64,000 nt of DNA from Burkholderiales bacterium PBB3 (GCA_002256115.1 NKIK01000003.1:194280-258279); one strand, 5' to 3'. Counted from the first letter of the stretch, positions 5,804-58,660 are shown. Notes: a model not told the origin generated them from the sequence alone. Numbers and translations: made by a program.

Positions 5804-6404
5804 GCACTGCGTTCGACCTAGTTTGCTACAGTTTTAGGTTGCGGTAGGAGCGGAGGTTACCCCCCTCGCCCCCCCGCACAGATCCGTACGTGCGGAATTA
5901 CCGCATGCGGCTCTTGCCTCAGGTAGGTGACGCATAGAAACGATCCTCCGGGTAAGGGTGCAAACTGCGTATGGGTGGTATGAACCGCTGGGCAATACGG
6001 CTGAACCTGCATCATGGCATCTTGGGCTTCTGGCTTCTATGGCTTGGGGCCTTGCCTGTTCCGCCCGTGCCGCGTGGCTCGGGCACCGATGAGATCTCCC
6101 AGCTTCCGAGTAGATCGCTTCCCGGCATGCTCAGGGTCTCAGACCGCGCGGGGTCACAGCATGTCTTGCGATTGACGTCATGCTGCGTGTTGCCTTCTGG
6201 CATAGCAACACCATGGGCACCCCGATTGAATGATTTCGCGGCTCAATGGCTGGCCTGCTGGTCTCCCCTGTCAACGCTTCGATCCACACATCGCGGTGTG
6301 CAACGCATGACTCGGGGCCAGAGTGAGTTCGCTATTTTTTCCCTGTATTGGACTTCCACCAACTACGATCCACCGCCTTTGCCGGCGCACTGCTATATAT
6401 TTAA

Positions 6405-30981: not shown

Positions 30982-32030
30982 TCTAACAAGCTATTGCGGA
31001 TAGCCAGCAGCGCGGGCAGGCAGAGCTGAAAGTGGCGAATGACCTCGGGGTCAAAGTGCGCGCCGCTTTGTGAAACTAAAAATTCAACAGCCGCATCCAC
31101 GCTCCAGGCGGCTTTGTAGGGCCGCTCAGACGTAAGGGCATCAAACACATCGGCCACGGCCACAATGCGGGCCGCCAGGGGTATGGCCTCACCCTCCAAG
31201 CCGGCCGGGTAGCCAGTGCCGTCCCACTTTTCGTGGTGATTTAGCGCAATTTTCTGGGCCAACTGCAGCAGATCGGATTCGTCATCATCGGCCAATATCA
31301 TGGCCCCGATAGCGGCGTGCGTTTGCATCGTGGCCCACTCGGCCGCGTCCAGCTTGCCTGGCTTGAGCAGGATGCTGTCAGGGATGCCAATCTTGCCCAC
31401 ATCGTGCATGGGGCTGGCGTGCAGTAGCAGGTCGCACCGCTCAATACTCCAGCCCATGCTGTTGGCTATGCACTCTGCAAACCGGCTCATGCGAATGGTG
31501 TGCAAGCCGGTTTCGTTGTCGCGGTACTCCGCGGCGCGGCCCAGGCGCTGCACCACTTGCAGACGCGTCTTGTTAAGGGCCTCGGTGCGCTCGCGCACGC
31601 GCTCTTCCAGCACTGCCTTTTGGTCAAACACCATGCGGTGTGCCAGCTGCGCGTCCAGCAAATTGCGCACCCGCATGAGCAGCTCAGCGCGGTCAAAGGG
31701 CTTGCCAATGAAGTCCCGCGCGCCACTGTTGAGCGCCTTGAGCAAGGCATCGCGCCCGTGCTGCGCTGTCATAACTACCACCGGGGGCAGCATGGAATCC
31801 TCCAGATTTTTGAGCTGCTCCATGACCGCGTAGCCATCCAGGTGCGGCATGTTGATGTCGAGCAAGATCAGGTCCGGGCGGCCCTCTTGGTAGCGCGGCA
31901 GCACCTCACGCGGGTCCTGCAAGAGTACGAGCTGGGTGTAGCCCTGTCCGGTGAGCAGTTTGTCGAGCAGCTTAAGATTGACCGGCTCGTCGTCCACCAC
32001 AAAAATGCGGGCTGGGTTGGTCTGGGTCAC
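30975..32030 (-). CDS. Response regulator with HD-GYP phosphodiesterase output domain (RpfG-like c-di-GMP PDE)
   Basis: REC (VVDDEPVNLKLL...LILLDINMPHLDG) plus HD-GYP (HDVGKIGIPD..., HHEKWDGTGYP). 7-nt overlap with the downstream kinase. Confidence 0.85.
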   Translation of the reverse strand: MTQTNPARIFVVDDEPVNLKLLDKLLTGQGYTQLVLLQDPREVLPRYQEGRPDLILLDINMPHLDGYAVMEQLKNLEDSMLPPVVVMTAQHGRDALLKALNSGARDFIGKPFDRAELLMRVRNLLDAQLAHRMVFDQKAVLEERVRERTEALNKTRLQVVQRLGRAAEYRDNETGLHTIRMSRFAECIANSMGWSIERCDLLLHASPMHDVGKIGIPDSILLKPGKLDAAEWATMQTHAAIGAMILADDDESDLLQLAQKIALNHHEKWDGTGYPAGLEGEAIPLAARIVAVADVFDALTSERPYKAAWSVDAAVEFLVSQSGAHFDPEVIRHFQLCLPALLAIRNSLLDC

Positions 32031-34577: not shown

Positions 34578-34922
34578 CTACTGGTCTGTGGCGACGCCCA
34601 GCCGCCACAGCGACGTCACCTCTTTGGAGCGTGCTGCGTGCGGCGGGTCGGTGGCCACGATCCGGCCGATTCCCCGGCGCGCCAGCACCGCCAACAAAAC
34701 ACCGGTGCCCGTGCCAATATCAAAGGCGCACAGGGCCGCCACCGAAGCCACGCTAACGGCGCCGGGTGGGCCCCAGGCCTCTGCACAAGCCTGACGCGCA
34801 TCGGGGCTGCGCTTCAGAGGGACACTGTAGTCAGCCTCAAAGCCAATCAACAGCATGCCCAGCACGCGAGAGCGCTGGGCTTGGCGATGCAGATGGAAGC
34901 CTGCGGCAAAACTAAGTGCCAA
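34578..34922 (-). pseudogene. Remnant of a SAM-dependent methyltransferase gene (paralog of 47407-48393) with two internal deletions; TTG-initiated ORF
   Basis: Translation aligns with the N-terminal (AFHLHRQAQ...LLIGFEADY...), GxGxG (AFDIGTGTGVL) and C-terminal (HAARSKEVTSLWRLGVA) segments of the 47.4-kb gene. The roughly 80-aa and 130-aa middle parts are missing. Confidence 0.65.
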
Positions 34923-34990
34923 ATCGGCCTTTGAAGCCGTGGATAGTGCGGGAGCAGCTCCTGAATTAATAGCGGTTAACGGGGAGTTGT
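34921..34990. repeat. Dispersed repeat copy B (reverse), nearly identical to copy A through ...aattaatagcggttaacggggag.t.tttta
   Basis: gccaaatcggcctttgaagccgtggatagtgcgggagcagctcctgaattaatagcggttaacggggagttgtttta. Confidence 0.85.
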
Positions 34991-35020: not shown

Positions 35021-36373
35021 TCACGACGGCCGCACAGGCTTCTTGCCGCGCTTGGGCGCCAGCAATACCGACTCACCCACTCTTGCAGTGGCGAATTTCT
35101 GGGGTGGTGATGGCTCCATCACCCCCGCCTCTTGAGTGAGCTTTGTCATTTCTGGCACCTGGATTTGAATGCGCTCGTTCAGTCGATTGAGCCCTGCGTT
35201 CCAGTGCCACAGCATCCTCGCGCCCACCGCGTCAAACCCTGGCGTGTGCTTCATGCGTTGAATCAATTCCGGCACGGTCGCCGCCACGGCGGTGCACACC
35301 AGCTCAGCGAGTTCGCGTTGGCGCGGGGGGTCGATACCCAGAAACACTTGCATGAATTGCCACAAGGGCTTCAGATGGGTCCAGCTCTTGCGGCCATCGA
35401 TGGACATGCCTGGCGGGTTATCCGCGTAGCTGTCATAGGCCACGATGGTCAGCATGTCGTAGATGGGCGCGACATGCACATCCTCCAAGCCGGTGTACAA
35501 AAAAGCAAGATTCTTGGTGTGGCAGTCTGAGTTGCCAAGTGCGTGCGTCAACAGCAGTGTCACGGCCAGTTGCTCGTAGGACGCGCGGCGGCCCTGGGGT
35601 GGCACATAGTTGCGCACAAGGCGCGCGGCGCGCTCCCAGGTGCCGTCGTACTTTTGCTCGGCACCCATGCCCAGCATGCTGCAAAAGTCTTCAAAACCCA
35701 GCCGCTCGCCAGTGAGCGGATCAATGTCAAAGCGCTCGACCACGAGGATCTGACCGTCGTCGGAAACCACTGTTTCTGCAACCGCGAAGCCGGTGGCTTT
35801 GGCCGCTTGCATACACAGGTGCTCGTTGAGCCCCACAAGCGGTTGCTTGTCTGAGCTAGCTTTGACGATGTGGCGCTCTGTGGATACGGTGCCTTTGCGG
35901 AACAGTGCTTTGGTCTCTGGCGTCAGAAATTTGGGGACCACCCCCGACACGCCTGAGGCCGCGTACTGGCTCATCAATTGCAGAAACACTTCGCGCGAAG
36001 ACTCACCATGCAACAGTCCATCGAGTTCATTGGCGGCGAGTTGCGGATTGGGACTACTGCCTGCGCTTACCTGAACGCGACCGATCATGTTGTGCCCCAC
36101 CACCGACAGCAGATCCATGGGACTTGCTCCCAGATGCGGCCCCAACTGCTCTTTGAGGACGGACAGTAAAAACCCCTCCGGCAGACTCACCTGAAAGAAA
36201 GGGTGCAGATTGGGCCACTCCCAGCTGGGGGACTGCACGGGCATGAGCAGCGACACAAAATCCTCGGGAGGGGTTCCGTGCAGGTAGGTCAGGTAATGCT
36301 CAAACCCTGCGGGGCTCTGCAACACCGCCACATGTCTGCCGTTCACGAAGACATTGAGTTCTGCCTTGCTCAT
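35021..36373 (-). CDS. hipA: HipA-family serine/threonine kinase toxin
   Basis: 450 aa; HipA N- and C-terminal domains; catalytic SDCHTKNLAF (DxHxKN). Confidence 0.8.
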   Translation of the reverse strand: MSKAELNVFVNGRHVAVLQSPAGFEHYLTYLHGTPPEDFVSLLMPVQSPSWEWPNLHPFFQVSLPEGFLLSVLKEQLGPHLGASPMDLLSVVGHNMIGRVQVSAGSSPNPQLAANELDGLLHGESSREVFLQLMSQYAASGVSGVVPKFLTPETKALFRKGTVSTERHIVKASSDKQPLVGLNEHLCMQAAKATGFAVAETVVSDDGQILVVERFDIDPLTGERLGFEDFCSMLGMGAEQKYDGTWERAARLVRNYVPPQGRRASYEQLAVTLLLTHALGNSDCHTKNLAFLYTGLEDVHVAPIYDMLTIVAYDSYADNPPGMSIDGRKSWTHLKPLWQFMQVFLGIDPPRQRELAELVCTAVAATVPELIQRMKHTPGFDAVGARMLWHWNAGLNRLNERIQIQVPEMTKLTQEAGVMEPSPPQKFATARVGESVLLAPKRGKKPVRPS

Positions 36374-36690
36374 GGCTTGCCGGACGCTCCGTGCGAAGCA
36401 TTGCGCAGTTCTTGCTGCAAGTCGTTCAAATTGGGGCGGCGGGTAGCGGGCACAAACTCCATCTCCACATCCAACACCTGCAACAAACGCAAGAGCTTGC
36501 CTGCGGATAGATCGCTGGAGGCCCCCGTCTCAAAGCGCGACAGCGTCTCTTGTCGCAATCCGGCAGCTGCTGCTACCTCAGTCTGCGTCTTGCCCGCTGC
36601 CTTGCGCAGCTGCTTGTACCGCGCACCAACGTCGGGCAGTGTTAATAAGGGATTTGCGTTTGGCATCATAAATTGGAGAAAATTTTCCAA
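36370..36690 (-). CDS. hipB: HipB-like XRE-family HTH antitoxin/regulator
   Basis: HTH QTEVAAAAGLRQETLSRFETG. 4-nt overlap with hipA. Confidence 0.7.
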   Translation of the reverse strand: MENFLQFMMPNANPLLTLPDVGARYKQLRKAAGKTQTEVAAAAGLRQETLSRFETGASSDLSAGKLLRLLQVLDVEMEFVPATRRPNLNDLQQELRNASHGASGKP

Positions 36691-36824
36691 ATCATGCTGT
36701 TCATTGCATATTTCGTCAATCCAAAATATGTTTTTCAGATCAAACTATTTGTAATTTTTGTAGAAATATGATTTGAATAGCATATTTTGGGCAAGGGAAG
36801 AAACGGCCAATGCTGGGTAAGCGC

Positions 36825-36912
36825 GCTGGCAACCGTGCCGATCCCCCTAGATTAGTGGCCAAAAGTGCCTTTCAACCGGCGATAGTGCGGGGGCAGCTCC
36901 TGAATTAGTAGC
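36825..36912. repeat. Dispersed repeat copy C (reverse; extended, diverged core ggcgatagtgcgggggcagctcctgaattagtagc)
   Basis: gctggcaaccgtgccgatccccctagattagtggccaaaagtgcctttcaaccggcgatagtgcgggggcagctcctgaattagtagc parallels the extended part of copy A. Confidence 0.75.
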
Positions 36913-37092
36913 AATTCGCGCAGATAAAGACTCGGCATCATGTACTGCATGGACATATCGGCAGCCAACGGCTATTGGAGGCTCATTTCGGTCTTTGCAG
37001 CCTCTCCGAAGCGGTCGGTCAAAATGCAGTTTTAACGTTGGAGGCCAGGCGCGGCTGAAGGCCGTCGCCTCTGGGCCGACCAGTTAGATTTC

Positions 37093-37578
37093 TTATAGGC
37101 CAAGAACATCACAGTGAAGTGGCCTGAGGTGAAACTTGCGGCGTTCGCGGCCCTGCCACTCACGCGGTACTTTGTCGAGTTCGCAGTTGAGTGTGACGCT
37201 GTTGACAATGCCAAACCCCAAAGCTACCCACTCAAACTCTCGCGAGTCTGATCCTGCATTTACCTTAAACCAGAATGCCTGTGTCGGGTCGCTTGAACTG
37301 GGAGGCATGCCAGGGTATCGCACCGGGGTCGCTTTCCCGGTAGCCACAACGACAAGGGCAGTACCCCGCGCGTCGGTAGTCGCGTAAATTGGGCGTTCGC
37401 AATCATCCGAGCCCAAGCTTCTGTAATCCAGGCACGTTGAGATGCCTGCAGCTCGCACTGGCTTTCCCGACTTTGTCAGCGTCACAGTAATCGGCGTAAG
37501 GACGACGTTCTCCGCATAAGCGGCAGGTACAGCCAAAGCGAGTGCTAAGGCGATATGAATGTGCCGAACGTAATACAT
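37093..37578 (-). CDS. Small secreted hypothetical protein (signal peptide MYYVRHIHIALALALAVPAAYA) in a low-GC segment
   Basis: ORF with a clear signal peptide and 4 Cys. Lower local GC than the window average. No recognisable domain. Confidence 0.4.
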   Translation of the reverse strand: MYYVRHIHIALALALAVPAAYAENVVLTPITVTLTKSGKPVRAAGISTCLDYRSLGSDDCERPIYATTDARGTALVVVATGKATPVRYPGMPPSSSDPTQAFWFKVNAGSDSREFEWVALGFGIVNSVTLNCELDKVPREWQGRERRKFHLRPLHCDVLGL

Positions 37579-37849
37579 GCTCGCGTGAAATCTACTTAAT
37601 GTCCAGAGCACCAATAAGTGCTCGATAAACTGGCTGATGCACGATATTCTGGTCATCAAATCCTCCCGAAAGTGGCTTGCAGCCTCACTTTCACTGTTTT
37701 TCGACTTTGTTAAATGGATATCGATATTCTGGCAGACCTGCCGAGACTGGCGGATACAAAACCATGTCCACAGACTCCATGAGACTGAAATTGGGTGACC
37801 GTCCTGAACGACAGCTATCACCCACAGATCGCAACGAGCAGGCTGAATC

Positions 37850-38566
37850 TCAATCGCCCAACTTTCCCCACAACTGATCAAACGCCCCCTGAAACTGCCG
37901 CACCAACGCAGCGTCATTCGTCACAACCACGTTCTCTTCGTTATGAGCCGCAGCACTGCGCGTCCAGTTGTAGCTGCCGTTCAGCAGCCACTGCCCATCA
38001 AAGATCGCAAACTTGTGGTGCATGTGCGCATCGGTGCGGTCCACGGCGGTGGGCACACCGGCGGCGCGCAGTCGGGTCACATCGCTGCCGGAGTCGGTTT
38101 CTTTGTCGTTGTCGGTGATGAAGCGCAGGGCCACGCCGCGTGCATGCGCGGCCAGCACCTCTTGGGCGATGCGGTCGTCGGACACGGTGAACACACAAAA
38201 ATCTACGCTGCGGTGGGCGCTGCGGAAGTGCTCGACGATGGTGTTCAGGCAAGCTTCACCAGGGCTAAAGAATGCGCTGGAGCGAATGGCTTGCGCTGGC
38301 GTACGGGCCACGTCCAGCGCGCGCACCACGGCCTCCGTCCAGCGCAGCACGGCCATGGGGTCTTGCTGTTCGGCCAACCGGTTGCGCGCCAGTGTGAAAG
38401 CATGGTTGCGCAGTTGGCGAAAGCCGTCTTCCGGCGGCTGGGCCTGGCGCAGGGTTTGGGCCAGGCTGTGTTTCTCTTCGTCGTCCAAGCGCAGGTCGGC
38501 CAGAGAGGCTTCCAACTGGCCTAGCAAGTTTTCCATGTCTGCGGGTGTGGCAGTCATCGTTTCCAC
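37850..38566 (-). CDS. Phospholipase D-family protein with a single HKD motif (Nuc-like endonuclease/phosphodiesterase fold); last gene of the five-gene operon
   Basis: HHKFAIFDGQWLLNGSYNWT (HxKx4Dx6GSxN). Preceded by an about 100-aa helical N-terminal region. Start lies 2 nt after the giant gene's stop. Confidence 0.75.
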   Translation of the reverse strand: METMTATPADMENLLGQLEASLADLRLDDEEKHSLAQTLRQAQPPEDGFRQLRNHAFTLARNRLAEQQDPMAVLRWTEAVVRALDVARTPAQAIRSSAFFSPGEACLNTIVEHFRSAHRSVDFCVFTVSDDRIAQEVLAAHARGVALRFITDNDKETDSGSDVTRLRAAGVPTAVDRTDAHMHHKFAIFDGQWLLNGSYNWTRSAAAHNEENVVVTNDAALVRQFQGAFDQLWGKLGD

Positions 38567-38568
38567 AC

Positions 38569-41500
38569 TCAGCCCTCGGTCTTCTTGCCACCGCCCTGGG
38601 CACGCGGTGCCCGTGGCTCGTTGGCTTTGGCCAGCAGCAGCTCCAGCCGTTTACTGATGCTGTGGTCCAGGTCCATGCGCTTCTCCGTCGCGGCGATCAG
38701 CGGCATGATGACTTTGCGGTATGTCACCGCCAACTGCAGCACGGCCTCAGCCATTTGCGCTCCCTCACTGGGTTCTTTGGGTCCCGCTGCCGGGCGCAAC
38801 TCATCAACCGACCGGCTCACATCCAGCAGTGCATTGGCAATGCGCGTAGAGCCGTCCGCATCCGCCCCACCCGCTTTGCGCTGGCGCACAAATTCGGCGC
38901 AGATGGCCTGCCAACGCGCATCCTCCTCGGGGCTTGCGGTGCCCATCAGTTGGGCCAGCTTGAGTAGGTTTTCTTGCGTGCCGGTGGTCAGGGTCTGGGC
39001 CTCACCCCGGTAGTGGTCGCGCAGCAGGGCGTCCAGTTCATCCTCATGCATCAGCCCGGTGATCTGGGCAGCCAGCTTGGTCATATTGCGGTAGCTGCCC
39101 TGTAGCTTGAAAGCGGGCTCGGTGCGGTAGTCGTCACGCTGGGCGGCTGAATCGATATAGGCCTGGTTCACCTTCAGCAGCAGATCGCGCGCGCGGAACA
39201 GCCTTTGCATGAGTGCTTTAAGCTCTTCCAGTTCGGCACTACTGTAAGCATGGGCAAAGTCGCCGCTGGCCACCTCATCCCCCTGGGCCAGGCGCACCAG
39301 CAATTGCACATCGCGCGGGTCGCGCGATGACAGGGGTGCCAGCACCGGATTGCTGGTCAGGCTGTTCTCAATATACGACTGGGCGAACAGGGCTTCGCGC
39401 CCAGCCAACACATCGCCCAGGTTGTAGATATCGGCCCGGTTGGCCAGCATGTCCGGGATCTTGAAGACCTCGCCCGACTCGGTATACGGGTTGCCCGCCA
39501 TGGCGATGGCAAAGCGCTTACCGCGCAAGTCGTAGCTGCGCGCCTGGCCTTGCCACATGCCTTCAATGCGGCGCGTGCCATCGGCCAGGCCGATGAACTT
39601 CTGCAAAAACTCCGCACTGGTGTGCTGAATGTCGTCCAGGTAGAGCATCACATTGCTGCCCATGGCCAGGCCCAGGTTCAGCTTCTCCAGCTCTTGGCGG
39701 GCAGCGCTGTTGCTGGCCGACGCAGGGTCAAGCGCCGTCACGTCATGGCCCAGTGCGGGGCAGTTGATGCGCACAAACACCAGCCCCAGCCGGTCGGCCA
39801 CATATTCCATCAGCGTGGTCTTGCCATAGCCAGGCGGCGAAATCAGCAACAACAGCCCCATGCGGTCCGTACGGCTGGTGGCACCGGTGGTGCCAATCTG
39901 CTTGGCCAGGTTGTCGCCAATCATCGGCAGGTACACCTCGTCGATCAGACGGTTGCGCACAAAAGATGACAAAGGCTTGGCCTGGAACTGGGATAAACCG
40001 AGGCGCGATTTTTCTGCGCTCAGCAGTTCGTGGTGCAAGCTTTTGAGCGCTGCAAACGCGGGCACCACCGTTTCGGCATGCGCGCGGTAGCGGCTCCAGA
40101 AGTCATTCAAATTGATCTGCAAGCTGCCTTGATTGATGCGGGCGTGTTCGCTGCGCAAACCGGTCACCGTGGCATCCAGCACCACATTCACCCTGCGGCG
40201 CTGGCCTGGCACAGCCAATACGCAGGCGGCATCGTCTACCCATGCGATGGCGGTCGGCTGGTGCGCCAGTGCAAAGGCATGCATCCAGGCACGCGCCAGC
40301 AACCAACGCTCGGCGGGTGTGGATGCATCCAGGCTGTGTTGCCAATCCAGCGCTTGGCCCAGGCGCTCCAGCTCGCGCTGCAGTGCGCTGGCCATGTCTT
40401 CGCCCGCGCCGCTGATAACCCAGGCCTGCTCTGTACCTGCAGCCCCAATCTCCCGCAGCCAATAGCTCGCGGCTTGATGGCACGCGGTCTGGTGATGCCC
40501 GTTATCAACGGACACTGGCGACAACGCGAAGCCGCTCTCTTCGGCAAACTGCAGCACGCTGTGCGCGGCCTCCACTTCCAGTTTTTGCAGGCTATCGCCA
40601 GCGCCAAAGAGGTGTTGCACTTGCAGCGCTGCACGCGCACGCCGCCGCCAAGACGCCTGCGCCTCACCCGAGCCCAAGTGCTGCCAAACCAATGTCGCCA
40701 GCGCGCGCTCTGTGGGGCCCCAAGTCAGCAAGCCTGCCTGCTCTTGCATGGGCACCAAAGCAGCAACCAAGCGCACCGCATCTTCGTCGTGCACGCCCTT
40801 TTCGTACCCTTCTTGATAACGGGCTGCGGCAAATTGGCGCACGCCCTCCAGCAGCGCCGCATGGCCGTCTTCACCTTGCGCCACCAGCGCCAGAGTTTGT
40901 GCCCAGGTCAGTGTGGCCTGCCCTTTTAGAACCTCTTCAATCCAACTTGCCGCCAAGTACTCTGCGCGGCTGATCAGCGCGGTCTCAGACGGCAGGGCTT
41001 GTTGCCAATACGGGCGATACGCGTCCAGCCGCGCGTCTTGCAGCGGTGCCCGGTAATCCGTGCCCGTCAGGTAAAAGGCCATGCTGTCGCCCAGCGGAGC
41101 CAGTGTGAGCTCCAGCGGCTGGCGGCTGATGGTGAAAGCGTGGCGGCCCAGGCGCAAATGGTTGCCGCCCTCAGACACCAGCTCGCGCTGATCACGCACC
41201 GCGCGCAAGGCGTGGTCGCGGCAAGTCTTGAGGCGCGTGTCCAGATCATCCGCAGCCACCTGGTCACCCAGGCCCCGCATGTCTGCAATCAGAGTGCGCA
41301 GCTTGGCAATCAGCAAGTCCGCCGCAAAGTAGCTGTGCACTTCTTCCAAGCCACTGAGCTGGGCCACACGGCGCTGCGCCCCGTCCAAAATGCGACCGGC
41401 CGCTGCAGCCAGAGCCTGCACGCGCTGCTGGCGCGCTTGCACCAGCGTTTGCTTGCGCGCGGTCAGCGCTTCGTAGACGGCCTCGCGTTTCTCTGTCACA

Positions 41501-43743
41501 TCGGCCAAGAACTCAGCGTGCTCGGCAAAGCGGCCCTCCAGCTCTTCCAGTTGGGCCAGCAGGCGGGTCAATGCGTCATCGCATTTTTCGGGGGTGTCGG
41601 CAAAGTCCAGCGCGTTCTCCACCGCTTGGCCAAACAATTTGAACTGGGCCTGAAACTCGGCTGCCGCCTCGCGCGAGCCCAGTGCCTTGCGTCGGTTACG
41701 CGCATCGGCTCGCAAGCGGTTGATGTCGGTGTACAGCGCAGAAATGCGCTCCAGAATGCCAGTGCGCTGCACGGCATCGCCGCCGGGCAAACCACCCAGC
41801 TGTTCGGTCAGCAGGTCCAGGCCTGCGGCCGTATCGTCCAGCCCCTGCAGAATGCTTTGTAGGCCCTGGCTGGTGGATACCTTGGGCAGCTCAGTGGCCA
41901 CTTGTGCCAGTTGCTGCTGGTGGGCGTGGAAGGCCTTTGCATCGGCCATGAAGGCCATGGCGCGCTCACCCACGCGCTGCTGCTCGGCCACCAGCTCGGT
42001 GTGCATGGCCTCTATGCGGGGCAGATCGGTGTAGCGCAGTTCTTTCAGGGTTTCCAGGTGGCCGCGGCGTTCGCGCAGGCGGCCCAGCGCCGCCACAAAG
42101 TCTTCGGGCTTGCGCCATAGCGTGCTGGCAATATCCACCACCAGTGCCTTGTGCTGGGCCTGTGCTTCGTCCAGGGCCTTGGCGGTCTCCTTGCGGATTT
42201 GCTCTACCTTCTCAAACTCGGCCAGCGTGGTGCGCGCCGCATCGCCAATGCCTTGCAGGTCTTGCAGCAAAGCACCCGCCTCGGGGTCGGCCAGCCAAAA
42301 ATAAGCGTCTGTGACGCGTCCGCATTGGCGAATCAAATCCTCATAGGCGGTGCGGGTGGGCGCTTGCTCTTGCAAGGCGCGCGCAATGCCCATCAACTCG
42401 GCAATACCGCGCACCAGCTCCGCATTGCCGATACGGCTGAAAAAGCCGGTGCCCGCATTCGCGCCGCCCGCGTACTCCTCGCTAAAAAACGGGGTTTGCC
42501 ACAGCTGCATCGGGTGCAGCCGCGTGGGCTCACCCATGCCCGCCTGAAACACCAGCACCTTGCCATCGGCAAACAGCGCGTAGCCATTGGCCACGATCGG
42601 CGCGGCCAAGGATTTATCGATCAGGTTGTAGGTAAACAGCGCATAGTGGCCGCTGACCGGCTGGTAAAACAGATACAGCACATCCTCGCCATTGGGCGAG
42701 CGCAGCATGCGCTTGAAGCGCAAATTGCGTGCAACATCTTCAGGCAAATCAAAGTGCTTGAACTCGCCCGACTGCAGGTAATAGCCACCCGGAAACACAA
42801 TGCCGTGGTCCTCCGGCAACTGCACACACGACAAGCCAATGGCATCAATGCGCGCTACCTGCAGCGTGCGCTGGTTGAAGACCAGATAGCGGGTAGTTTG
42901 TTCGCGATAGGGCCGCACGCGCAGCAAAATGAGTGCGCCCAGCTTGGCGTAGGCCACCTCGGCATCGGTGAGCGACTGGCTCTTGTCGTCCACCGGCTCG
43001 CTGTAAATGCCCAGTCCGGTTTCGGTGTTGTTCTCTACCTTAACGGTCAGGTCGCCACCCACCGTCTCCACGAATACCGTGTCCAGAATATTGATATGCG
43101 GATGCTTGCCGTCCACATGGTTTTCACGGGTGGTTGGCGTCCATTCAAAGTCGTGGCTAGGCGGTAGCGCAATGTCGCGCTCGCCACGGTTGTCCAGATA
43201 CTGCAGCGTGCCATCTGGCGACAACTGCCAGCGGAACACGCGCACGTCGTGCACTTGCTGACCTATCTGAAAAGCCGCCAGCAGCTTACCCTGCGTGACC
43301 CGCAGTTGCAGCAGTTGGGCTTGCTTGTAATAGGCGTAAAGCTCTTTGAAGTCGGATGCGAAACGCGCGTCTTCCAGAAAGCTGCCAGCCAGAGGCACAT
43401 CTTCCAGATCCTGCTCGGTACCCATGCGGTACAGCGCAAAAACATCCCCCACGCTGGTCTCTTTGCGCAGGCCAATGAAAACGTTATAGCCAAACAGCAG
43501 CAGATCGCCAATGCGCACGATGTCGCGGGCGACACAGTTGTTTTGGGTGCGGGCACGGGTGCGCAGTACCAGCGTTTGCTCGGACTTGCCAAACTCTAGC
43601 GTGCGGGCGGCATTGAGCGTTTGTGCTTTTTTAAGCAGCACTTCGCCCTGCACGGTCAGGCGATTCTTCAGCAGCTCGTAGCTATTGCTGCCAGCGACCA
43701 GACTCTCAGTGGAGTCTGCCGCCGCGGATGTGTCAGAAGGCAT
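38569..43743 (-). CDS. Giant (1,724 aa) protein with one MoxR/AAA_5-like AAA+ ATPase module in the C-terminal third; remaining ~1,280 N-terminal residues have no recognisable domain
   Basis: Walker A LLLISPPGYGKTTLMEY, Walker B VMLYLDDIQH, sensor-1-like AMAGNPYTESGEVFKIPDMLANRADIY. Long helical/coiled-coil central region (residues ~550-1000). Uninterrupted ORF with consistent codon usage. Confidence 0.8.
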   Translation of the reverse strand: MPSDTSAAADSTESLVAGSNSYELLKNRLTVQGEVLLKKAQTLNAARTLEFGKSEQTLVLRTRARTQNNCVARDIVRIGDLLLFGYNVFIGLRKETSVGDVFALYRMGTEQDLEDVPLAGSFLEDARFASDFKELYAYYKQAQLLQLRVTQGKLLAAFQIGQQVHDVRVFRWQLSPDGTLQYLDNRGERDIALPPSHDFEWTPTTRENHVDGKHPHINILDTVFVETVGGDLTVKVENNTETGLGIYSEPVDDKSQSLTDAEVAYAKLGALILLRVRPYREQTTRYLVFNQRTLQVARIDAIGLSCVQLPEDHGIVFPGGYYLQSGEFKHFDLPEDVARNLRFKRMLRSPNGEDVLYLFYQPVSGHYALFTYNLIDKSLAAPIVANGYALFADGKVLVFQAGMGEPTRLHPMQLWQTPFFSEEYAGGANAGTGFFSRIGNAELVRGIAELMGIARALQEQAPTRTAYEDLIRQCGRVTDAYFWLADPEAGALLQDLQGIGDAARTTLAEFEKVEQIRKETAKALDEAQAQHKALVVDIASTLWRKPEDFVAALGRLRERRGHLETLKELRYTDLPRIEAMHTELVAEQQRVGERAMAFMADAKAFHAHQQQLAQVATELPKVSTSQGLQSILQGLDDTAAGLDLLTEQLGGLPGGDAVQRTGILERISALYTDINRLRADARNRRKALGSREAAAEFQAQFKLFGQAVENALDFADTPEKCDDALTRLLAQLEELEGRFAEHAEFLADVTEKREAVYEALTARKQTLVQARQQRVQALAAAAGRILDGAQRRVAQLSGLEEVHSYFAADLLIAKLRTLIADMRGLGDQVAADDLDTRLKTCRDHALRAVRDQRELVSEGGNHLRLGRHAFTISRQPLELTLAPLGDSMAFYLTGTDYRAPLQDARLDAYRPYWQQALPSETALISRAEYLAASWIEEVLKGQATLTWAQTLALVAQGEDGHAALLEGVRQFAAARYQEGYEKGVHDEDAVRLVAALVPMQEQAGLLTWGPTERALATLVWQHLGSGEAQASWRRRARAALQVQHLFGAGDSLQKLEVEAAHSVLQFAEESGFALSPVSVDNGHHQTACHQAASYWLREIGAAGTEQAWVISGAGEDMASALQRELERLGQALDWQHSLDASTPAERWLLARAWMHAFALAHQPTAIAWVDDAACVLAVPGQRRRVNVVLDATVTGLRSEHARINQGSLQINLNDFWSRYRAHAETVVPAFAALKSLHHELLSAEKSRLGLSQFQAKPLSSFVRNRLIDEVYLPMIGDNLAKQIGTTGATSRTDRMGLLLLISPPGYGKTTLMEYVADRLGLVFVRINCPALGHDVTALDPASASNSAARQELEKLNLGLAMGSNVMLYLDDIQHTSAEFLQKFIGLADGTRRIEGMWQGQARSYDLRGKRFAIAMAGNPYTESGEVFKIPDMLANRADIYNLGDVLAGREALFAQSYIENSLTSNPVLAPLSSRDPRDVQLLVRLAQGDEVASGDFAHAYSSAELEELKALMQRLFRARDLLLKVNQAYIDSAAQRDDYRTEPAFKLQGSYRNMTKLAAQITGLMHEDELDALLRDHYRGEAQTLTTGTQENLLKLAQLMGTASPEEDARWQAICAEFVRQRKAGGADADGSTRIANALLDVSRSVDELRPAAGPKEPSEGAQMAEAVLQLAVTYRKVIMPLIAATEKRMDLDHSISKRLELLLAKANEPRAPRAQGGGKKTEG

Positions 43744-43751
43744 GCAGACCC

Positions 43752-44288
43752 TTACCAGTCAGCACGCAACAAGGCGACTAGCTCGTCACGGCCTGGCTGC
43801 GCCTGAAGCCACTGGCGAATGCGTGCCAGCTCATCCATGGTCTCAGCGCCGTGGCGTTGGCGCAGCACGGCTTCGCGTCCTTGGCGCAACTCGTTAGTCT
43901 GCAATTGGCGCTGCCAAGCATCGGTCAGAATCTCGTCGAGCCGGCTGCCCAGACCTGCTGCCACAAATGCCTGCCACTCGCCGCGGGCAAACCAGACGTT
44001 CTGGCACGCAGCGCAACGGTCCACGCGGAAGTCGGGCTGCGCGCCTACGCGGAAACGCTGCATCAGGCGCGCGCACGCAGGGCAATGCCGGGCGATCGGG
44101 TCTTCATCGGCAGCGATGGCTTGCGCCACCGGCGGCACCGGTGTTTTGTCGCGCCAGGCGCGGTAGTCGTCGAGTTGTAAAAGCTGGCCTTCACAACTGA
44201 CGCATTCCAGGCCCTGCAGTCCGGGTGCCAATTCGCAGACTGTGAGTTCGGTGTGGGCCTCGCAGCCGCAGCGCAGTGTTGATTTCAT
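43752..44288 (-). CDS. Double zinc-ribbon protein (two CxxC...CxxC pairs, TFIIB-like zinc-finger domain) plus helical C-terminal tail
   Basis: CGCEAH...CVSCEG and CPACARL...CAACQN. Start 15 bp after the flotillin stop; stop 8 bp before the giant gene start. Confidence 0.6.
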   Translation of the reverse strand: MKSTLRCGCEAHTELTVCELAPGLQGLECVSCEGQLLQLDDYRAWRDKTPVPPVAQAIAADEDPIARHCPACARLMQRFRVGAQPDFRVDRCAACQNVWFARGEWQAFVAAGLGSRLDEILTDAWQRQLQTNELRQGREAVLRQRHGAETMDELARIRQWLQAQPGRDELVALLRADW

Positions 44289-44303
44289 GGGTGTGCTCCT
44301 GCG

Positions 44304-46466
44304 TTACTCGGGTTTCTGGCCACTTTTGTTGGTCTTGGACAGCAAGGAGGCAATCGCCAGGTCTTTCAGCTCGCCCGACGAGTTGCCGAGCGACCCGACC
44401 AGTTGCCCCAGGTCGTCCACCATATTGCGTTTGCCCGACAGGTGATCTTTCAGCCCGATCTTCAGCGTATCGCTCTTGGCGATAGCGCCGTCGATGCCCT
44501 TGCCCACCGCCAGCGCACTGACGAAACGCTCGAAGTAGCTGCCGTCGCCGCCCACCATCTCGATCTTGGCATTGGCCAGTGCTTTGCCCAGGACTTCGGC
44601 CTGCTCTTTGGCGATGGCGGTTTGTGCATCGATGCCCTTGAGGGTCTCGGTATGCGCCATCTCCAGCCGCATGCGGTATTCCTCGTGGTCGCGCGTTTCG
44701 CTGCTCATGGCCTTCATGGCTTCAAACTTCTCGCGCAGGCCCTTGGCCTCTGCAGAGAAGCGTGCTTGCACGTTCTGGGCATCAGCTTCGCCTGCCTTGA
44801 TCGTGGCTTCGGCTCCGGCGGTGCGCACAGCCACTTCGGCCAGGCCCAGTTTCTCTTTGCCTTGCGCTTCAGCTTCCAGTTTGGCCTGCAGGCCCGTGGC
44901 TTCGGCTTGCGCGCGCGCTTCGATCACCTGCGCGTCTGCCAGGCCGGCTTTGATGGTGGCTTCCACGCCCGCTGTACGCACCGCCACATCGGCCAGGCCC
45001 AGCTTCTCTTTGCCTTGCGCTTCAGCCTGGTTACGCGCCTCAATCACATGCACATCCGACAGACCCTTTTTCTCGGTGGCGTCGGCAGTCACCATCATCA
45101 CGCGGGCGGCCGCCAGGCCAGGGGCGGCACTCACTGCCTCCATGCCTTCCGCCTCCCGCTTTTTGGACTCGGCGTTCTTCTCTGACACCTTGAGTCGCGC
45201 ATCCGCCATGGCGACTTCTTCGCTAGCTTTGTGGCGTGCACTGCGTTCTTGCGACTCTGCCGCCTTCACTTCCGCAATCATTTTTTCTTCGGCCTGACCT
45301 TCAGCCAGGATGATGGTGGAGCGCTTGGTGCGCTCTGCCTCCGCTACCACGCGCAGTTCCTTGATGGCTTCTTCTTGCTCGGCCACGGTGCGGTCCACCA
45401 CGATGCGTTCGCGGATCACGTCGGCAATGGCTTTCTTTTGCACCTCCAGCGCGCGTTCTTTGTCGATCTTCTGCAGGGCCACTTCTTTCTCGCGGTCCAC
45501 CACTTCCAGGTCGCGCGCACGAATCACTTTTTCTTCTTCAATGGCCACCGCGCGCTTGCGGTTGTTCTCGGCCACTTCTTTTTCGCGCAATGCGTTTTCG
45601 TTTTGCACTGCTACCTGCTGCTCGCCTTGCAGGCGCGCCATCTCGGATTTGGTGCGTTCCTCAGATTGGATCTTGGAAGTCTCGGCCTCTTCGCGAGCGC
45701 GCATGGTGGCCACTTCCCGCTGCTGGCGGGCTTGGGCGTCGGCGGCCTGGCGATCCAGCTCCAGCATGGTCTCCTGGGTTTCCACGTTTTTCTTCTTGAT
45801 CTGCATCTCTTCGTTGCGGCGCAGCTCGTTGGTGCGCACGCTCTCCACCGCCGTCAGCTCGGTGATTTTCTTGATGCCCTGGGCGTCCAGAATATTGCTC
45901 GCGTCCAGCTTGGACACCGGTGTTTGCTCCAGGTAGTCAATGGCAGCATCTTCGAGCACATAGCCCGACAGGTCGTCGCCAATCTGGCGAATGATTTCGT
46001 CGCGGAAATGGTCGCGCGCCTGGTACAGGTCCACAAATTCCATGGACTTGCCCACGGTTTTGAGCGCCTCTGAAAACTTGGAGGAGAACAGGTCTTCCAA
46101 CGCATCCTGGTTGGAGGCTCGCTCGCAGCCCACGCCTTGGGCGACCTTCAAAACGTCTTCCGCGGTTTTGTTGACGCGTACGAAAAACTTGACCTTGATG
46201 TCGGCGCGGATGTTGTCCTTGCAGATCAGCCCTTCGCGGCCCGAACGGTCAATCTCAATGGTCTTGACCGAGATGTCCATCAACTCGGCCTTGTGGATGA
46301 TGGGGTAGACCATGCAGCCTGTGAAAGTGACCGTAGGCTCAGCGCGCATGGTGTTCACGATCAGGGCGTGGCCCTGCTCAATCTTCCGGTAAAAGCGCGC
46401 AAACAATACAAACATGCCGAACACGATGACCGTGATGACGGCTGCTGCGACGATGATGGGTTCCAT
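44304..46466 (-). CDS. Flotillin-like SPFH/band-7 protein (YqiK family) with very long Glu/Ala-rich coiled-coil tail
   Basis: N-terminal TM segment, SPFH domain (HALIVNTMRAEPTVTF...), about 350 aa of EA-rich heptads with an internal ~41-aa duplicated unit. Confidence 0.85.
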   Translation of the reverse strand: MEPIIVAAAVITVIVFGMFVLFARFYRKIEQGHALIVNTMRAEPTVTFTGCMVYPIIHKAELMDISVKTIEIDRSGREGLICKDNIRADIKVKFFVRVNKTAEDVLKVAQGVGCERASNQDALEDLFSSKFSEALKTVGKSMEFVDLYQARDHFRDEIIRQIGDDLSGYVLEDAAIDYLEQTPVSKLDASNILDAQGIKKITELTAVESVRTNELRRNEEMQIKKKNVETQETMLELDRQAADAQARQQREVATMRAREEAETSKIQSEERTKSEMARLQGEQQVAVQNENALREKEVAENNRKRAVAIEEEKVIRARDLEVVDREKEVALQKIDKERALEVQKKAIADVIRERIVVDRTVAEQEEAIKELRVVAEAERTKRSTIILAEGQAEEKMIAEVKAAESQERSARHKASEEVAMADARLKVSEKNAESKKREAEGMEAVSAAPGLAAARVMMVTADATEKKGLSDVHVIEARNQAEAQGKEKLGLADVAVRTAGVEATIKAGLADAQVIEARAQAEATGLQAKLEAEAQGKEKLGLAEVAVRTAGAEATIKAGEADAQNVQARFSAEAKGLREKFEAMKAMSSETRDHEEYRMRLEMAHTETLKGIDAQTAIAKEQAEVLGKALANAKIEMVGGDGSYFERFVSALAVGKGIDGAIAKSDTLKIGLKDHLSGKRNMVDDLGQLVGSLGNSSGELKDLAIASLLSKTNKSGQKPE
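44770..45035. repeat. Intragenic tandem duplication of about 153 bp inside the flotillin coiled-coil region
   Basis: Protein segments AQGKEKLGLADVAVRTAGVEATIKAGLADAQVIEARAQAEA and AQGKEKLGLAEVAVRTAGAEATIKAGEADAQNVQARFSAEA. The corresponding DNA is near-identical. Confidence 0.6.
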
Positions 46467-46523
46467 GAAAACTCCCTAGTGAAACAAATTACTTAAACGA
46501 TCGAAGAGGCAGTGCGCAGGGCG

Positions 46524-47153
46524 CTAAGGCTCCGCCACCACCTTGTAGCGTGCTGTCTTTTCGTCATAGCCCACGATGCGTGCACTGCTACCGCGTGCCA
46601 GTGCATTGGGCACAGGCGTCCAGATGCGAATATTGATGCTGGCACCGTGCTGGGCCACCTCGGCGCGGCCCATCTGCTCATCCACCGTTTGGGTCAGCAC
46701 TTTGCAGGTCTGCCCCACCAGCGATGCATTGTTGATGGCAGCGTGGGTGACGAACAAACCACGCAGCGGCCGAATCATGCGGGCACTGACCGTGACCGCC
46801 AAAGACAGGCTGGCCAGGGCCAACACAGCACCCGCGCCGTAGTTGGCTGCGGCACCACCCAACCAGGGCAGCACCCACATGGCCCCCAGGCAGCTCAGTG
46901 TCCAAGCGACCAATATGACCAGGCTGACCGCGATAGAAAATGGAACCCCGTGCAGGCCGAAAGCGACCACATAGCTGGCCACCGTGCTGATCTCGTAGCC
47001 GTCCACATCGGCGGCAGAGCCAGGCTCCAGGTCCAGAGACTCTAAATCGACCACGCCCAGCAGGGCCAGCAGCCAGTAAAAGATCACGACCCCTAAAAAA
47101 GTCGTGAAGAGTGCGGTGGGAAATGCGACCACCGCGTCCAAAAAGCTCAGCAT
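46524..47153 (-). CDS. YqiJ/NfeD-like inner-membrane protein (DUF1449; TM helices plus C-terminal OB-fold); first gene of the operon
   Basis: Multi-TM N-terminus. C-terminal LVGQTCKVLTQTVDEQMGRAEV...RIWT resembles the NfeD OB-fold. Positioned immediately upstream of flotillin as in the E. coli yqiJ-yqiK pair. Confidence 0.65.
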   Translation of the reverse strand: MLSFLDAVVAFPTALFTTFLGVVIFYWLLALLGVVDLESLDLEPGSAADVDGYEISTVASYVVAFGLHGVPFSIAVSLVILVAWTLSCLGAMWVLPWLGGAAANYGAGAVLALASLSLAVTVSARMIRPLRGLFVTHAAINNASLVGQTCKVLTQTVDEQMGRAEVAQHGASINIRIWTPVPNALARGSSARIVGYDEKTARYKVVAEP

Positions 47154-47337: not shown

Positions 47338-47375
47338 CCCATGGATAGTGCGGGAGCAGCTTCTGAATTGATAGC
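47338..47375. repeat. Dispersed repeat copy D (reverse), in the 5' region of the operon
   Basis: cccatggatagtgcgggagcagcttctgaattgatagc. Confidence 0.8.
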
Positions 47376-47406: not shown

Positions 47407-48770
47407 CTAGCGTGCGGGTGCCACCGCCAACCGCCACAGCGAGGTGACCTCTAGCGCACGCGCCGCGTGCAGCGGGTCGGCCGCATCAAAGGCCTTGCCA
47501 TGCACCGGCTTGGTATCCAGCCGCCCCAGCACCTGCAGGCCCGCGCCAGCAATCGCGTCCAACAATTCAGCGCGGCTGCGCAGGCCCAGGTGTTCGGCCA
47601 AATCCGAGAGGATCAGCCAGCCCTCGCCCTGCGGCTCCAAGTGCGCGGCCAGGCCCGCCAAAAAGCCCAGCAGCATAGCGCTGCCTTCGTCATACACCGC
47701 GTGCTCTATGGGTGAGCTGGGCCGGGCGGGTAGCCACGGCGGGTTGCACACGATCAGATGCGCCAGCCCTGGCGGGAATAGGGATGTCTGCAACAACTGC
47801 ACCGGCGAATCAGCGCGGCCCGCCACGCCCAGCCTCTGCAAATTTTCAGCCGCGCAGGCCAGGGCGCGCGGGTCCAGATCGGTGGCCACGATATGGCCCA
47901 CACCCCGGCGCGCCAGCACCGCAGATAACACGCCCGTGCCCACACCAATGTCAAACGCCGTCAGCTTGGCGGCGGCCTGCGCACCGTGGGCTCCTTGGAC
48001 TCCTTGGACTACTTGGACACTTGGCAGCGGTGCCTGCTGCACCAAGCTCACATACTCACCCCGCTGCGGAGAAAACACGCCGTAGTGCGGGTGGATGCGG
48101 TTGTGGGGCGCAGCGCCCAGGGCGGGCACTTCCACACCGTTTTTGCGCCACTCGTGCGCGCTGATCAGGCCCAGCAGCTCACGCAATGACGCTACCGAAG
48201 CCACAGCGTCCGCACCCGGCGGGCCCCAAGCCTCAGCACAGGCCTGGCGCGCATCGGGGGCGCGCTTGAGTGCGATACCGTAATCCGCCTCAAAGCCAAT
48301 CAGAAGCATGCCCAGCACGCGCGCACGCTGCGCCTGGGCTTGGCGGTGCAAATGAAAGGCAGTGGCCGGATTCGATGCCTTTTCGGCCACTGAGGCCGTG
48401 GATAGTGCGGGAGCAGCTCCTGAATTAATAGCATTGCGCTCTGGCGCGCCCGCTAGTTGCTTTGCCCTCTTGATGGCCTTGGCACCCTTGGCGGCTTTGC
48501 CGCTGGGGCCCGACGCATCGGCCCGCCGCGCGAGCGCCTGCAGCATCTGCCGCGCGTTTTGAAAATCACCCCGCCACAGCAGCGCCGTGCCTTCGCAGGC
48601 CAGGCGGTAAGCGACATCGGCGCTCAGGGTGTCATCGGCCAGCACCACGCGCTTGGGTGGGCTGACACCACGCTCTGAGCGCCACTGCGCGCTGCAGGGC
48701 TGGCCGGCTTCTTGCCAGTGGATGCGGGCTTCGCCCGATGTTGGTGAAGTCGTCATAAGTTCAGTAGCCA
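47407..48770 (-). CDS. Class I SAM-dependent methyltransferase (MTS 'small methyltransferase domain', NPPW motif) with N-terminal ~110-aa domain and in-frame repeat-derived linker; start ATG overlaps the ccdB stop
   Basis: GxGxG AFDIGVGTGVLSAV, acidic loop VATDLDPRAL, catalytic LIVCNPPW. ORF runs through repeat copy E (…[15 protein letters not shown]…). Upstream segment (VVLADDTLSADVAYRLACEGTALLWRGDF…) also looks coding. Confidence 0.6.
48394..48432. repeat. Dispersed repeat copy E (reverse), in-frame inside the methyltransferase ORF
   Basis: ggccgtggatagtgcgggagcagctcctgaattaatagc. Confidence 0.85.
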
Positions 48771-49075
48771 TGGAGGGCGTATTCCAGGGCGTCCCAAATG
48801 GCTTCGGCATCGCCTTGCAGGTTGGCTACTGGGCGGCGCAGATCGCCGGGCTCATGGGAGGTAATCGCCAAAGTCTCCAACACAAGCATTTCACCCGCAA
48901 CACTCAGCCAGGGATTCAGTGTGGTGGGAGGCGCTGTTTGCGTATCCGGGCGCGCCAACGCCACGGTGATCACCGCTACGGGGCGTTTCAGAAAATTGCT
49001 TTGAATGCCGACGACGAAGGGATGACTGTCGCGCAACTCTTCGACCGGGTTGGGGTACACATCGAACTGAGCCAT
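48761..49075 (-). CDS. ccdB: CcdB-family toxin (gyrase poison fold)
   Basis: 104 aa; MAQFDVYPNP...HPFVVGIQSNFL...LNPWLSVAGEMLVLETLAI parallels CcdB (MQFKVYTY...VDVQSD...). Abuts the antitoxin ORF. Confidence 0.6.
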   Translation of the reverse strand: MAQFDVYPNPVEELRDSHPFVVGIQSNFLKRPVAVITVALARPDTQTAPPTTLNPWLSVAGEMLVLETLAITSHEPGDLRRPVANLQGDAEAIWDALEYALHGY

Positions 49076-58575: not shown

Positions 58576-58660
58576 GCCCGGGTGGTGGAATTGGTAGACG
58601 CACGGGACTCAAAATCCCGCGCCGCAAGGCGTGCCGGTTCGATTCCGGCCCCGGGCACCA
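58576..58660 (+). tRNA. tRNA-Leu (anticodon CAA), with encoded CCA
   Basis: Acceptor gcccggg/cccgggc, D-arm, anticodon loop ctCAAaa, long variable arm (class II), T-arm ggttcgattcc. Confidence 0.9.

Follow-up and report, generated by a model that had tools for sequence, protein, structure and literature searches.

A flotillin-linked giant AAA+ protein in a shortened copy of a probable membrane-stress gene cluster of Burkholderiales bacterium PBB3

What would a bacterium do with a 1,724-amino-acid (aa) AAA+ protein that is encoded in line with a flotillin? The question is raised by a block of five genes at positions 37,850 to 47,153 of a 64,000-nucleotide stretch of DNA from Burkholderiales bacterium PBB3 (GCA_002256115.1, NKIK01000003.1:194280-258279); this whole stretch is called the window below, and all positions are counted from its first letter. 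A first-pass annotation, made from the sequence alone, had described the block as an operon coupling an NfeD-like/flotillin membrane pair to a zinc-ribbon protein, the giant and a phospholipase D (PLD) family protein, and had proposed that it might be a defence or stress module that matched no described defence system. The analysis reported here showed that the block is a shortened copy of a membrane-stress cluster of the phage shock protein (PSP)/flotillin network, which was described by comparative genomics in 2024. Taken as a whole, it is on balance probable that the operon acts as an abbreviated, PspA-less, ATP-driven module of the flotillin/PspA type for stress response and remodelling at the cytoplasmic membrane.

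The operon and its conserved neighbourhood

The five genes, as called from their open reading frames (ORFs), are as follows.

46524-47153, minus strand: gene 1, YqiJ-like protein, 209 aa
44304-46466, minus strand: gene 2, YqiK-type flotillin, 720 aa
43752-44288, minus strand: gene 3, double zinc-ribbon protein, 178 aa
38569-43743, minus strand: gene 4, AAA+ giant, 1,724 aa
37850-38566, minus strand: gene 5, PLD protein with a single HKD motif, 238 aa

All five ORFs were present where the first-pass annotation had placed them. The intergenic gaps, from gene 1 to gene 5, were 57, 15, 8 and 2 bp; the last three are as previously given, and only the first had been put at 58 bp. Gene 5 starts with GTG and has an in-frame ATG 9 nucleotides downstream. 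The motifs that had been quoted were also found, namely the Walker A (SPPGYGKTT), Walker B (LYLDDIQH) and GNPYTESG...ANRADIY motifs of the giant and the HHKFAIFD...GSYNWT motifs of the PLD protein. Transmembrane segments were predicted from the sequence for the products of genes 1 and 2 only, and the zinc-ribbon protein, the giant and the PLD protein were predicted to be soluble. Their conservation in other genomes (27-80% identity for the giant) marks all five as genuine genes rather than ORFs that arose by chance, and they probably form one operon.

A scan of one genome per species yielded 245 relatives of the giant, from which 80 loci were taken; six more loci came from distant relatives, which are 27-33% identical to the giant over its N-terminal 690 residues, giving 86 loci in all. 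A flotillin homolog was located upstream of the giant gene on the same strand in 79 of the 80 informative loci, and a homolog of gene 1 was detectable in 70 of 77. In five distant relatives, a gene of ~190-245 aa and a Band_7-type gene of ~650-680 aa stood directly upstream of the giant gene, and PF01145 (Band_7) is on record for the gene in the flotillin position of three distant loci. A PLD gene, on the other hand, was found within 1.5 kb downstream of the giant gene in 38 of 73 loci, all of them beta-proteobacterial (Burkholderiales/Rhodocyclales-type), and a zinc-ribbon gene lay between the flotillin and giant genes in ~32 of 58. The first-pass annotation had asked whether the giant always occurs together with SPFH/NfeD and PLD genes; the answer was positive, with few exceptions, for the flotillin and gene 1, but negative for the PLD gene. 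The conserved core is therefore the trio of YqiJ-like, flotillin and giant genes, which is nearly invariant, while the zinc-ribbon and PLD genes are clade-specific extras, and the earlier picture of a uniform five-gene unit has to be replaced by that of a three-gene core. The only informative locus without an adjacent flotillin gene (L042:230-8283) has a type I-F cas operon (Csy1-4), a transketolase gene and an OmpW gene upstream.

The neighbourhood extends further upstream in most relatives. In 45 of the 58 fully informative loci, gene 1 was preceded by a DUF2170 gene (CesT/Tir-like, YjfI family; E=1e-28), a PspA/IM30 gene (PspA_IM30, E=6e-33) and a gene of ~100 aa, a context that the first-pass annotation had missed. 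These loci include gamma-proteobacterial Thiodiazotropha, and the DUF2170-PspA prefix was present in most of the beta-proteobacterial relatives and in some of the gamma-proteobacterial ones. The small gene (~100-120 aa) stood between pspA and the YqiJ-like gene in ~46 loci (for example L009:6083-6448) and is absent from the window; it belongs to no Pfam family, and one member gave noise-level matches to a CopG antitoxin and to DUF6364.

Downstream of the giant gene the relatives are heterogeneous, and elsewhere unrelated genes replace the PLD gene. In three Thiodiazotropha loci (L073, L076 and L079), a gene for a Peptidase_M50B-like membrane protein (E=1e-42) directly followed the giant gene in the place of the PLD gene, and TelA adjoined the giant in two distant copies (L082 and L083/L084). 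These are alternative accessory genes, all of them membrane or stress related. On pQBR103, a megaplasmid of P. fluorescens SBW25 (L088, NC_009444.1 85446-104350), a core of hypothetical, SPFH and giant genes came directly after a yjfJKLMC-like cluster of PspA, rhomboid, DUF2491, DUF350, DUF1190 and glutathionylspermidine-synthase genes. Here the two classes of PspA-CesT operon described by Ravi et al. are merged, and a gene of the MvaT/MvaU family comes next. In Variovorax, the flanks of the locus were conserved among species, which indicates a vertically inherited chromosomal locus in that genus.

The same neighbourhood has been described in silico by Ravi et al. in 2024 (mSystems 9:e00847-23, PMC11237479). 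Their operon comprises a CesT/Tir-PspA dyad, a YqiJ/YuaF protein with three transmembrane segments, a band-7/flotillin protein and a beta-propeller-coiled-coil-AAA+ protein; it was assigned to the PSP envelope-stress network, and an HKD phospholipase D was reported in the operon of some Proteobacteria. Abbreviated, PspA-less operons were noted to have a wider distribution, and their products may cooperate with a PspA whose gene lies elsewhere. The authors proposed that the protein acts like a chaperone when membrane-linked complexes are assembled, and the supplement lists an example from Dokdonia donghaensis (ANH61663.1) with the same gene order. Our survey reproduced this neighbourhood independently, and the window fits its abbreviated form. 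Gene 2 provides the flotillin, gene 5 the optional HKD phospholipase D, and the giant the expected architecture, with DUF3686, DUF7902 and an AAA module, an N-terminal helix, ~28 strands and a helical stalk. The window differs from the full form in that the CesT/Tir-PspA dyad, present in 45 of 58 relatives, is missing; the closest relatives (Rhodoferax/Ramlibacter-like) are likewise without the PspA prefix. The only details absent from that paper for this operon are the double zinc-ribbon gene, which it does not list, and the ~100-aa gene after pspA in full-length relatives, which it does not mention. The novelty suggested by the first-pass annotation, which could place the operon in no described defence-system family, is therefore not upheld: the giant is catalogued in databases (DUF3686/DUF7902, "DNA repair ATPase"), and the whole neighbourhood, including the HKD variant and the PspA-less operons, is covered by PMC11237479.

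Properties of the encoded proteins

The giant was modelled with AlphaFold on an alignment of 69 family sequences, and confidence was high in both parts modelled (residues 1-900, pLDDT 88.1; residues 880-1724, pLDDT 90.7). In the models, the order of parts was an N-terminal helix, a beta-propeller-like DUF3686 domain of ~28 strands, a long helical stalk that includes DUF7902, a conserved helical middle domain, one MoxR-type AAA+ module and a helical C-terminal domain. The parts that could be placed on the DNA are the following.

42298-43638, minus strand: DUF3686, beta-rich propeller-like domain, residues 36-482 (Pfam, E=4.5e-197)
41686-41937, minus strand: DUF7902, part of the helical stalk, residues 603-686 (Pfam PF25472, E=6e-23)
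40777-40797, minus strand: G-V-H-D-x-D-A motif of the middle helical domain, residues 983-989 (conservation in 69 family members)
39304-39876, minus strand: single AAA+ module, residues about 1290-1480 (Walker A K1308, sensor-1 N1418 and R1436)

The N-terminal ~1,280 residues, for which the first-pass annotation could name no domain, thus hold two Pfam families, DUF3686 and DUF7902. The literature search found no papers on either. The Foldseek matches of the model were propeller-containing proteins with low TM-scores, and the stalk contained long helices at residues 492-540, 657-714 and 743-793. Residues 880-1290 were without a Pfam match even at E<=10. In the GVHDxDA motif that lies within them, G983, H985 and D988 were invariant and D986 and A989 at least 90% conserved among the 69 members; a reading of this motif as an HD phosphohydrolase was dropped, as it had no Pfam support. 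No transmembrane segment was found in the giant. The family comprises 861 clusters at 50% identity, with full-length members of 1,590-1,930 aa, and its most conserved part is the AAA+ region.

The presence of one MoxR-type module, as first proposed, was borne out at the level of the AAA+ fold, whose nearest structural relatives are CbbQ and NorQ, both MoxR proteins, and which is also matched by Pfam AAA_5. This similarity, the name "MoxR-like ATPase" given to some members by JGI, and the chaperone-like assembly role proposed by Ravi et al. (PMC11237479) would all be compatible with a maturation chaperone like CbbQ, NorQ or RavA, in which the giant would remodel a specific membrane enzyme complex or insert a cofactor, and the flotillin would be the assembly platform, with no general part in stress or repair. 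Several observations argued against this. The AAA+ core resembles MoxR proteins, but the Walker B aspartates D1370-D1371 (39631-39636) form an invariant DD (DDIQH) in the 69 family members and not the DE of the canonical hhhhDE motif. A protein with a VWA/MIDAS domain is the usual companion of MoxR ATPases, and CbbQ and NorQ are stand-alone ATPases of ~260 aa that work with the VWA partners CbbO and NorD. In contrast, the giant has ~1,280 extra N-terminal residues, and no VWA domain was found in the window or in annotated genes around the relatives. Nor was a conserved candidate client enzyme adjacent, the downstream genes being heterogeneous. We therefore regard a maturation chaperone as improbable.

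The databases offer another function. In NCBI, UniRef and Pfam the family goes by "DNA repair ATPase" or "ATPase involved in DNA repair"; read literally, this would have the giant act on damaged DNA together with the Nuc-like HKD enzyme. The relationship of gene 5 to the nucleases Nuc and NucT and weak matches of the giant to RuvB_N-type P-loops agree with this, and a knock-out of the Shewanella flotillin SO1377 raised the spontaneous mutation rate, although the authors attributed this to iron and oxidative stress (PMC1468410). The RuvB matches, however, span the generic P-loop only (~50 residues, E about 1e-3), Pfam scans detected no DNA-binding domain in the giant, and the conserved neighbours are, without exception, proteins of the membrane or of the PSP network. 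In the literature, the name could be traced to no experimental source, and a search for "DNA repair ATPase" together with flotillin, SPFH or PspA gave no experimental study. A role in DNA repair is thus very unlikely, and the database name appears unfounded and misleading. SO1377 itself was considered as a copy of this operon and rejected, because it belongs to a stand-alone DUF1449-flotillin pair with its own terminator.

The flotillin encoded by gene 2 consists of an N-terminal transmembrane anchor (residues 1-27), an SPFH/band-7 domain, a long charged coiled coil and Flot repeats, for which the Pfam Flot match was weak. It was 27% identical to E. coli K-12 YqiK over 449 aa including the SPFH region (E=4e-39). 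The C-terminal repeat region contains a direct duplication of 153 nucleotides (51 aa) at 44719-45024 with 73% identity, which was found by the repeat search but not reported by TRF. The homologs vary in length from about 647 to 720 aa, consistent with a variable number of repeats.

Gene 1 encodes three hydrophobic segments (residues about 4-41, 58-98 and 105-127) followed by a small C-terminal beta-rich domain, and it shares with YqiJ its length, its position upstream of the flotillin gene and this layout. The direct similarity to E. coli YqiJ was marginal (BLAST E=3.5; hhalign probability 54%, E=1.2e-4), and neither a Pfam nor a PDB profile match was obtained. NCBI and JGI list close homologs under the names "DUF1449 family protein" or "OB-fold-containing protein". 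From its sequence features, the product is predicted to be an inner-membrane protein in the YqiJ/YuaF (DUF1449, NfeD-like) position. The first-pass annotation had called genes 1 and 2 a yqiJ/yqiK pair, which is correct for the flotillin, whereas gene 1 had no significant BLAST match to YqiJ. It was right that yqiJ-yqiK is a stand-alone pair in E. coli K-12. Relative to this pair, and to yuaF-floT of B. subtilis, the window thus has a clear YqiK homolog and a protein of the same layout as YqiJ, but three genes follow here, and the giant gene is adjacent in 79 of 80 relatives. Searching the PDB by sequence with the flotillin, the giant and gene 3, and with a profile built on gene 1, returned nothing informative.

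The product of gene 3 is soluble and carries two zinc ribbons (CxC...CxxC and CxxC...CxxC), which are followed by helices that are conserved at the C-terminus; Pfam Zn_ribbon_TFIIB matched residues 68-107. Eight cysteines were invariant (C7, C9, C29, C32, C69, C72, C92 and C95) in a family that is small (88 proteins), and one of its members, from a metagenome-assembled genome deposited as Burkholderiales bacterium PBB3, was 100% identical to the gene 3 product. A two-zinc-ribbon protein, YdjG, is also encoded in the PspA-linked pspA-ydjGHI (samGHI) operon of B. subtilis, next to an SPFH protein and a membrane partner (PMC11237479), and the SPFH protein YdjI is needed there for PspA membrane foci (PMC8581546; bioRxiv 10.64898/2026.02.06.704340). 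The B. subtilis operon differs in having neither a giant AAA+ protein nor a PLD; YdjI is without a transmembrane anchor, and YdjH is a TPM-domain protein and not YqiJ-like. YdjG has a transmembrane segment and an NTF2-like domain, unlike the soluble gene 3 product. The B. subtilis operon can serve as an analogue for the scaffold part of the present one.

Gene 5 matched PLDc_2 (Pfam, E=4e-30) and, as had been noted at first, carries a single HKD motif (HHKFAIFD), which is accompanied by a GSxN motif (GSYNWT), as in the single-HKD clade. Its nearest solved relatives were the MitoPLD/Zucchini (PLD6) proteins, annotated as "mitochondrial cardiolipin hydrolase" (E=4e-27 and 6e-25), followed by Nuc (1e-8) and NucT (6e-6). 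It differs from these relatives in a helical N-terminal extension of ~100 aa and in having no transmembrane or signal-like segment, which suggested a cytoplasmic location.

Surroundings of the operon and the defence reading

The block lies next to hipBA (35021-36690) and to a stretch of lower GC content (36000-38000; 0.53-0.54 versus about 0.60-0.64 nearby), and it is bracketed by two copies of a dispersed repeat, as the first-pass annotation had reported in each case. The repeat has a 32-nt core, GATAGTGCGGGAGCAGCTCCTGAATTAATAGC, within a unit of ~59 nt, and five copies were found, all on the plus strand, with 0 expected by chance.

28418-28449, plus strand: dispersed-repeat copy
34942-34973, plus strand: dispersed-repeat copy
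36881-36912, plus strand: dispersed-repeat copy (first labelled C), between the low-GC orphan ORF and hipB
47344-47375, plus strand: dispersed-repeat copy (first labelled D), between gene 1 and the upstream methyltransferase ORF
48401-48432, plus strand: dispersed-repeat copy

The copy at 48401 lies inside a 467-aa methyltransferase ORF and would encode ...AINSGAAPALS.... RNA folding of four copies gave no significant structure, and no Rfam match was found there. Just downstream of hipA, at 34591-34973, a shortened, ~80% identical copy of parts (47420-48432) of the methyltransferase ORF (47407-48810) was observed; it has internal deletions and still holds a frame of ~130 aa. A 12.4-kb segment containing hipBA, the orphan ORF and the five-gene operon is consequently flanked by direct repeats, made up of the truncated methyltransferase copy and the dispersed repeat, and these may be island or recombination boundaries.

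Such surroundings invite a reading as anti-phage or abortive-infection system, in which the flotillin and YqiJ-like proteins would sense phage damage to the envelope, the giant would transduce the signal, and the HKD enzyme would degrade phage or host nucleic acid. In its favour are the position of the block between repeats, beside hipBA and the low-GC orphan, the lack of conserved flanks in the closest clade, the relative 3.7 kb from the type I-F cas operon (L042), and the occurrence of the family on a few megaplasmids; gene 5 also weakly matched defence PLD models (MkoB 1e-8, DpdK 2e-8 and DrmC 3e-7 in PADLOC, and also in NCBIfam). On closer comparison, however, no positive evidence for the defence function first suggested was obtained. 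Against PADLOC-DB v2, genes 1-3 had no match, the giant gave noise only (LmuB at E=5.6e-4 over the coiled coil and IetA at 2.6e-3), and the matches of gene 5 were generic PLD matches. The NCBIfam scan of the five proteins produced no system-level match, none of them matched a PHROG family, and no phage record encoding the giant was found. Of 72,556 plasmid records, 13 carry the giant, and these are mostly megaplasmids, chromids or mislabelled chromosomes; in Variovorax the locus is stable, with flanks conserved across species. Furthermore, the PLD gene is absent from about half of the loci, including all gamma-proteobacterial and distant ones, and cannot be an obligatory effector, and PspA/CesT-like genes head the operon in 45 of 58 loci. 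Taken together, these data make a defence function unlikely.

A few other features of the window were observed. In the lower-GC stretch, a 274-aa ORF (37093-37917, minus strand) shares 68 bp with the 3' end of the PLD gene and matches no Pfam family; its internal start, MYYVRHIHIALALALAVPAAYA..., resembles a signal peptide, and what is made is probably a secreted protein of ~160 aa with no relation to the operon. Just beyond hipA (28480-34561, minus strand), two paralogous hybrid PAS histidine kinases (833 and 844 aa) surround an HD-GYP-type response regulator (Response_reg and HD_5). Outside the operon, a group II intron D1-D4 RNA match (RF02005, 166.6 bits) was located at 6134-6356 on the minus strand and a tRNA gene at 58576-58657 on the plus strand.

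Proposed mechanism and its meaning

As for how a module for membrane stress and remodelling could work, the following steps are proposed, each held with much lower confidence than the reading as a whole. On the cytoplasmic face, the flotillin would oligomerise into a scaffold attached to the membrane, and the YqiJ-like protein would be its partner of the NfeD type. The giant could dock on this scaffold via its propeller and long helical stalk, and its AAA+ ring, presumably hexameric, would act where the membrane is damaged, assembling, disassembling or extracting proteins of the scaffold or its clients; the clients may include PspA polymers where PspA is available in cis or in trans. By analogy with YdjG, the zinc-ribbon protein might serve as an adaptor. 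The HKD enzyme would be a local phosphodiesterase, most plausibly acting on an anionic phospholipid (cardiolipin or phosphatidylglycerol) if MitoPLD is a guide, or alternatively it may cleave nucleic acid. HflK/HflC-FtsH and Vps4-ESCRT-III served as analogies only. In the former, an SPFH scaffold and an AAA+ ATPase operate in physical association at the inner membrane (PMC13220708). FtsH differs in being a classical-clade AAA+ protease that is anchored by transmembrane segments beside a periplasm-facing HflK/HflC cage, while the giant is soluble, MoxR-like and without a protease domain.

Several points weigh against this function. No homolog of DUF2170, PspA or the small gene was found anywhere in the 64-kb window, so that a PspA client is a conjecture for this copy. 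The invariant DD of Walker B leaves the ATPase competence of the giant a prediction, and no experimental work on any member of its family was found in the literature. The substrate of gene 5 could also be nucleic acid, to judge from its sequence relatives: the MitoPLD/Zucchini family includes nucleases, and weak matches to DrmC/DpdK/MkoB and NucT were obtained. A consensus scan of the window for promoters and terminators gave nothing above shuffled sequence, and co-transcription accordingly rests on the spacing and the kept gene order. Finally, the flanks of the window copy shared no common context with any of the 80 genome loci, including those of its own Rhodoferax-like clade, and its position beside hipBA and between repeats fits accessory DNA.

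A bolder form of the proposal can be stated, which we offer tentatively and consider rather doubtful as it stands. The giant would be a dedicated ATP-driven remodeller of bacterial flotillin assemblies (and of those of PspA/ESCRT-III where present), a functional counterpart of Vps4 built on a MoxR-type ring, a propeller and a long stalk. The PspA-less cassette of the Rhodoferax type would couple it to a Zucchini/MitoPLD-like enzyme that remodels cardiolipin where the membrane is damaged, and the cassette would form a self-contained, horizontally mobile membrane-repair machine.

The window does not hold a new defence system, and the gene neighbourhood appeared in print in 2024. What remains of interest is that this giant ATPase is widespread, has a flotillin beside it in almost every locus and has been catalogued in silico only. 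It bears on the questions of how bacterial flotillin and the ESCRT-III-like PspA are assembled and disassembled, and of whether an ATPase drives these events as Vps4 does in archaea and eukaryotes. Because the giant is tied to a flotillin in 79 of 80 loci and often stands behind pspA, it is a concrete candidate for the driving ATPase.

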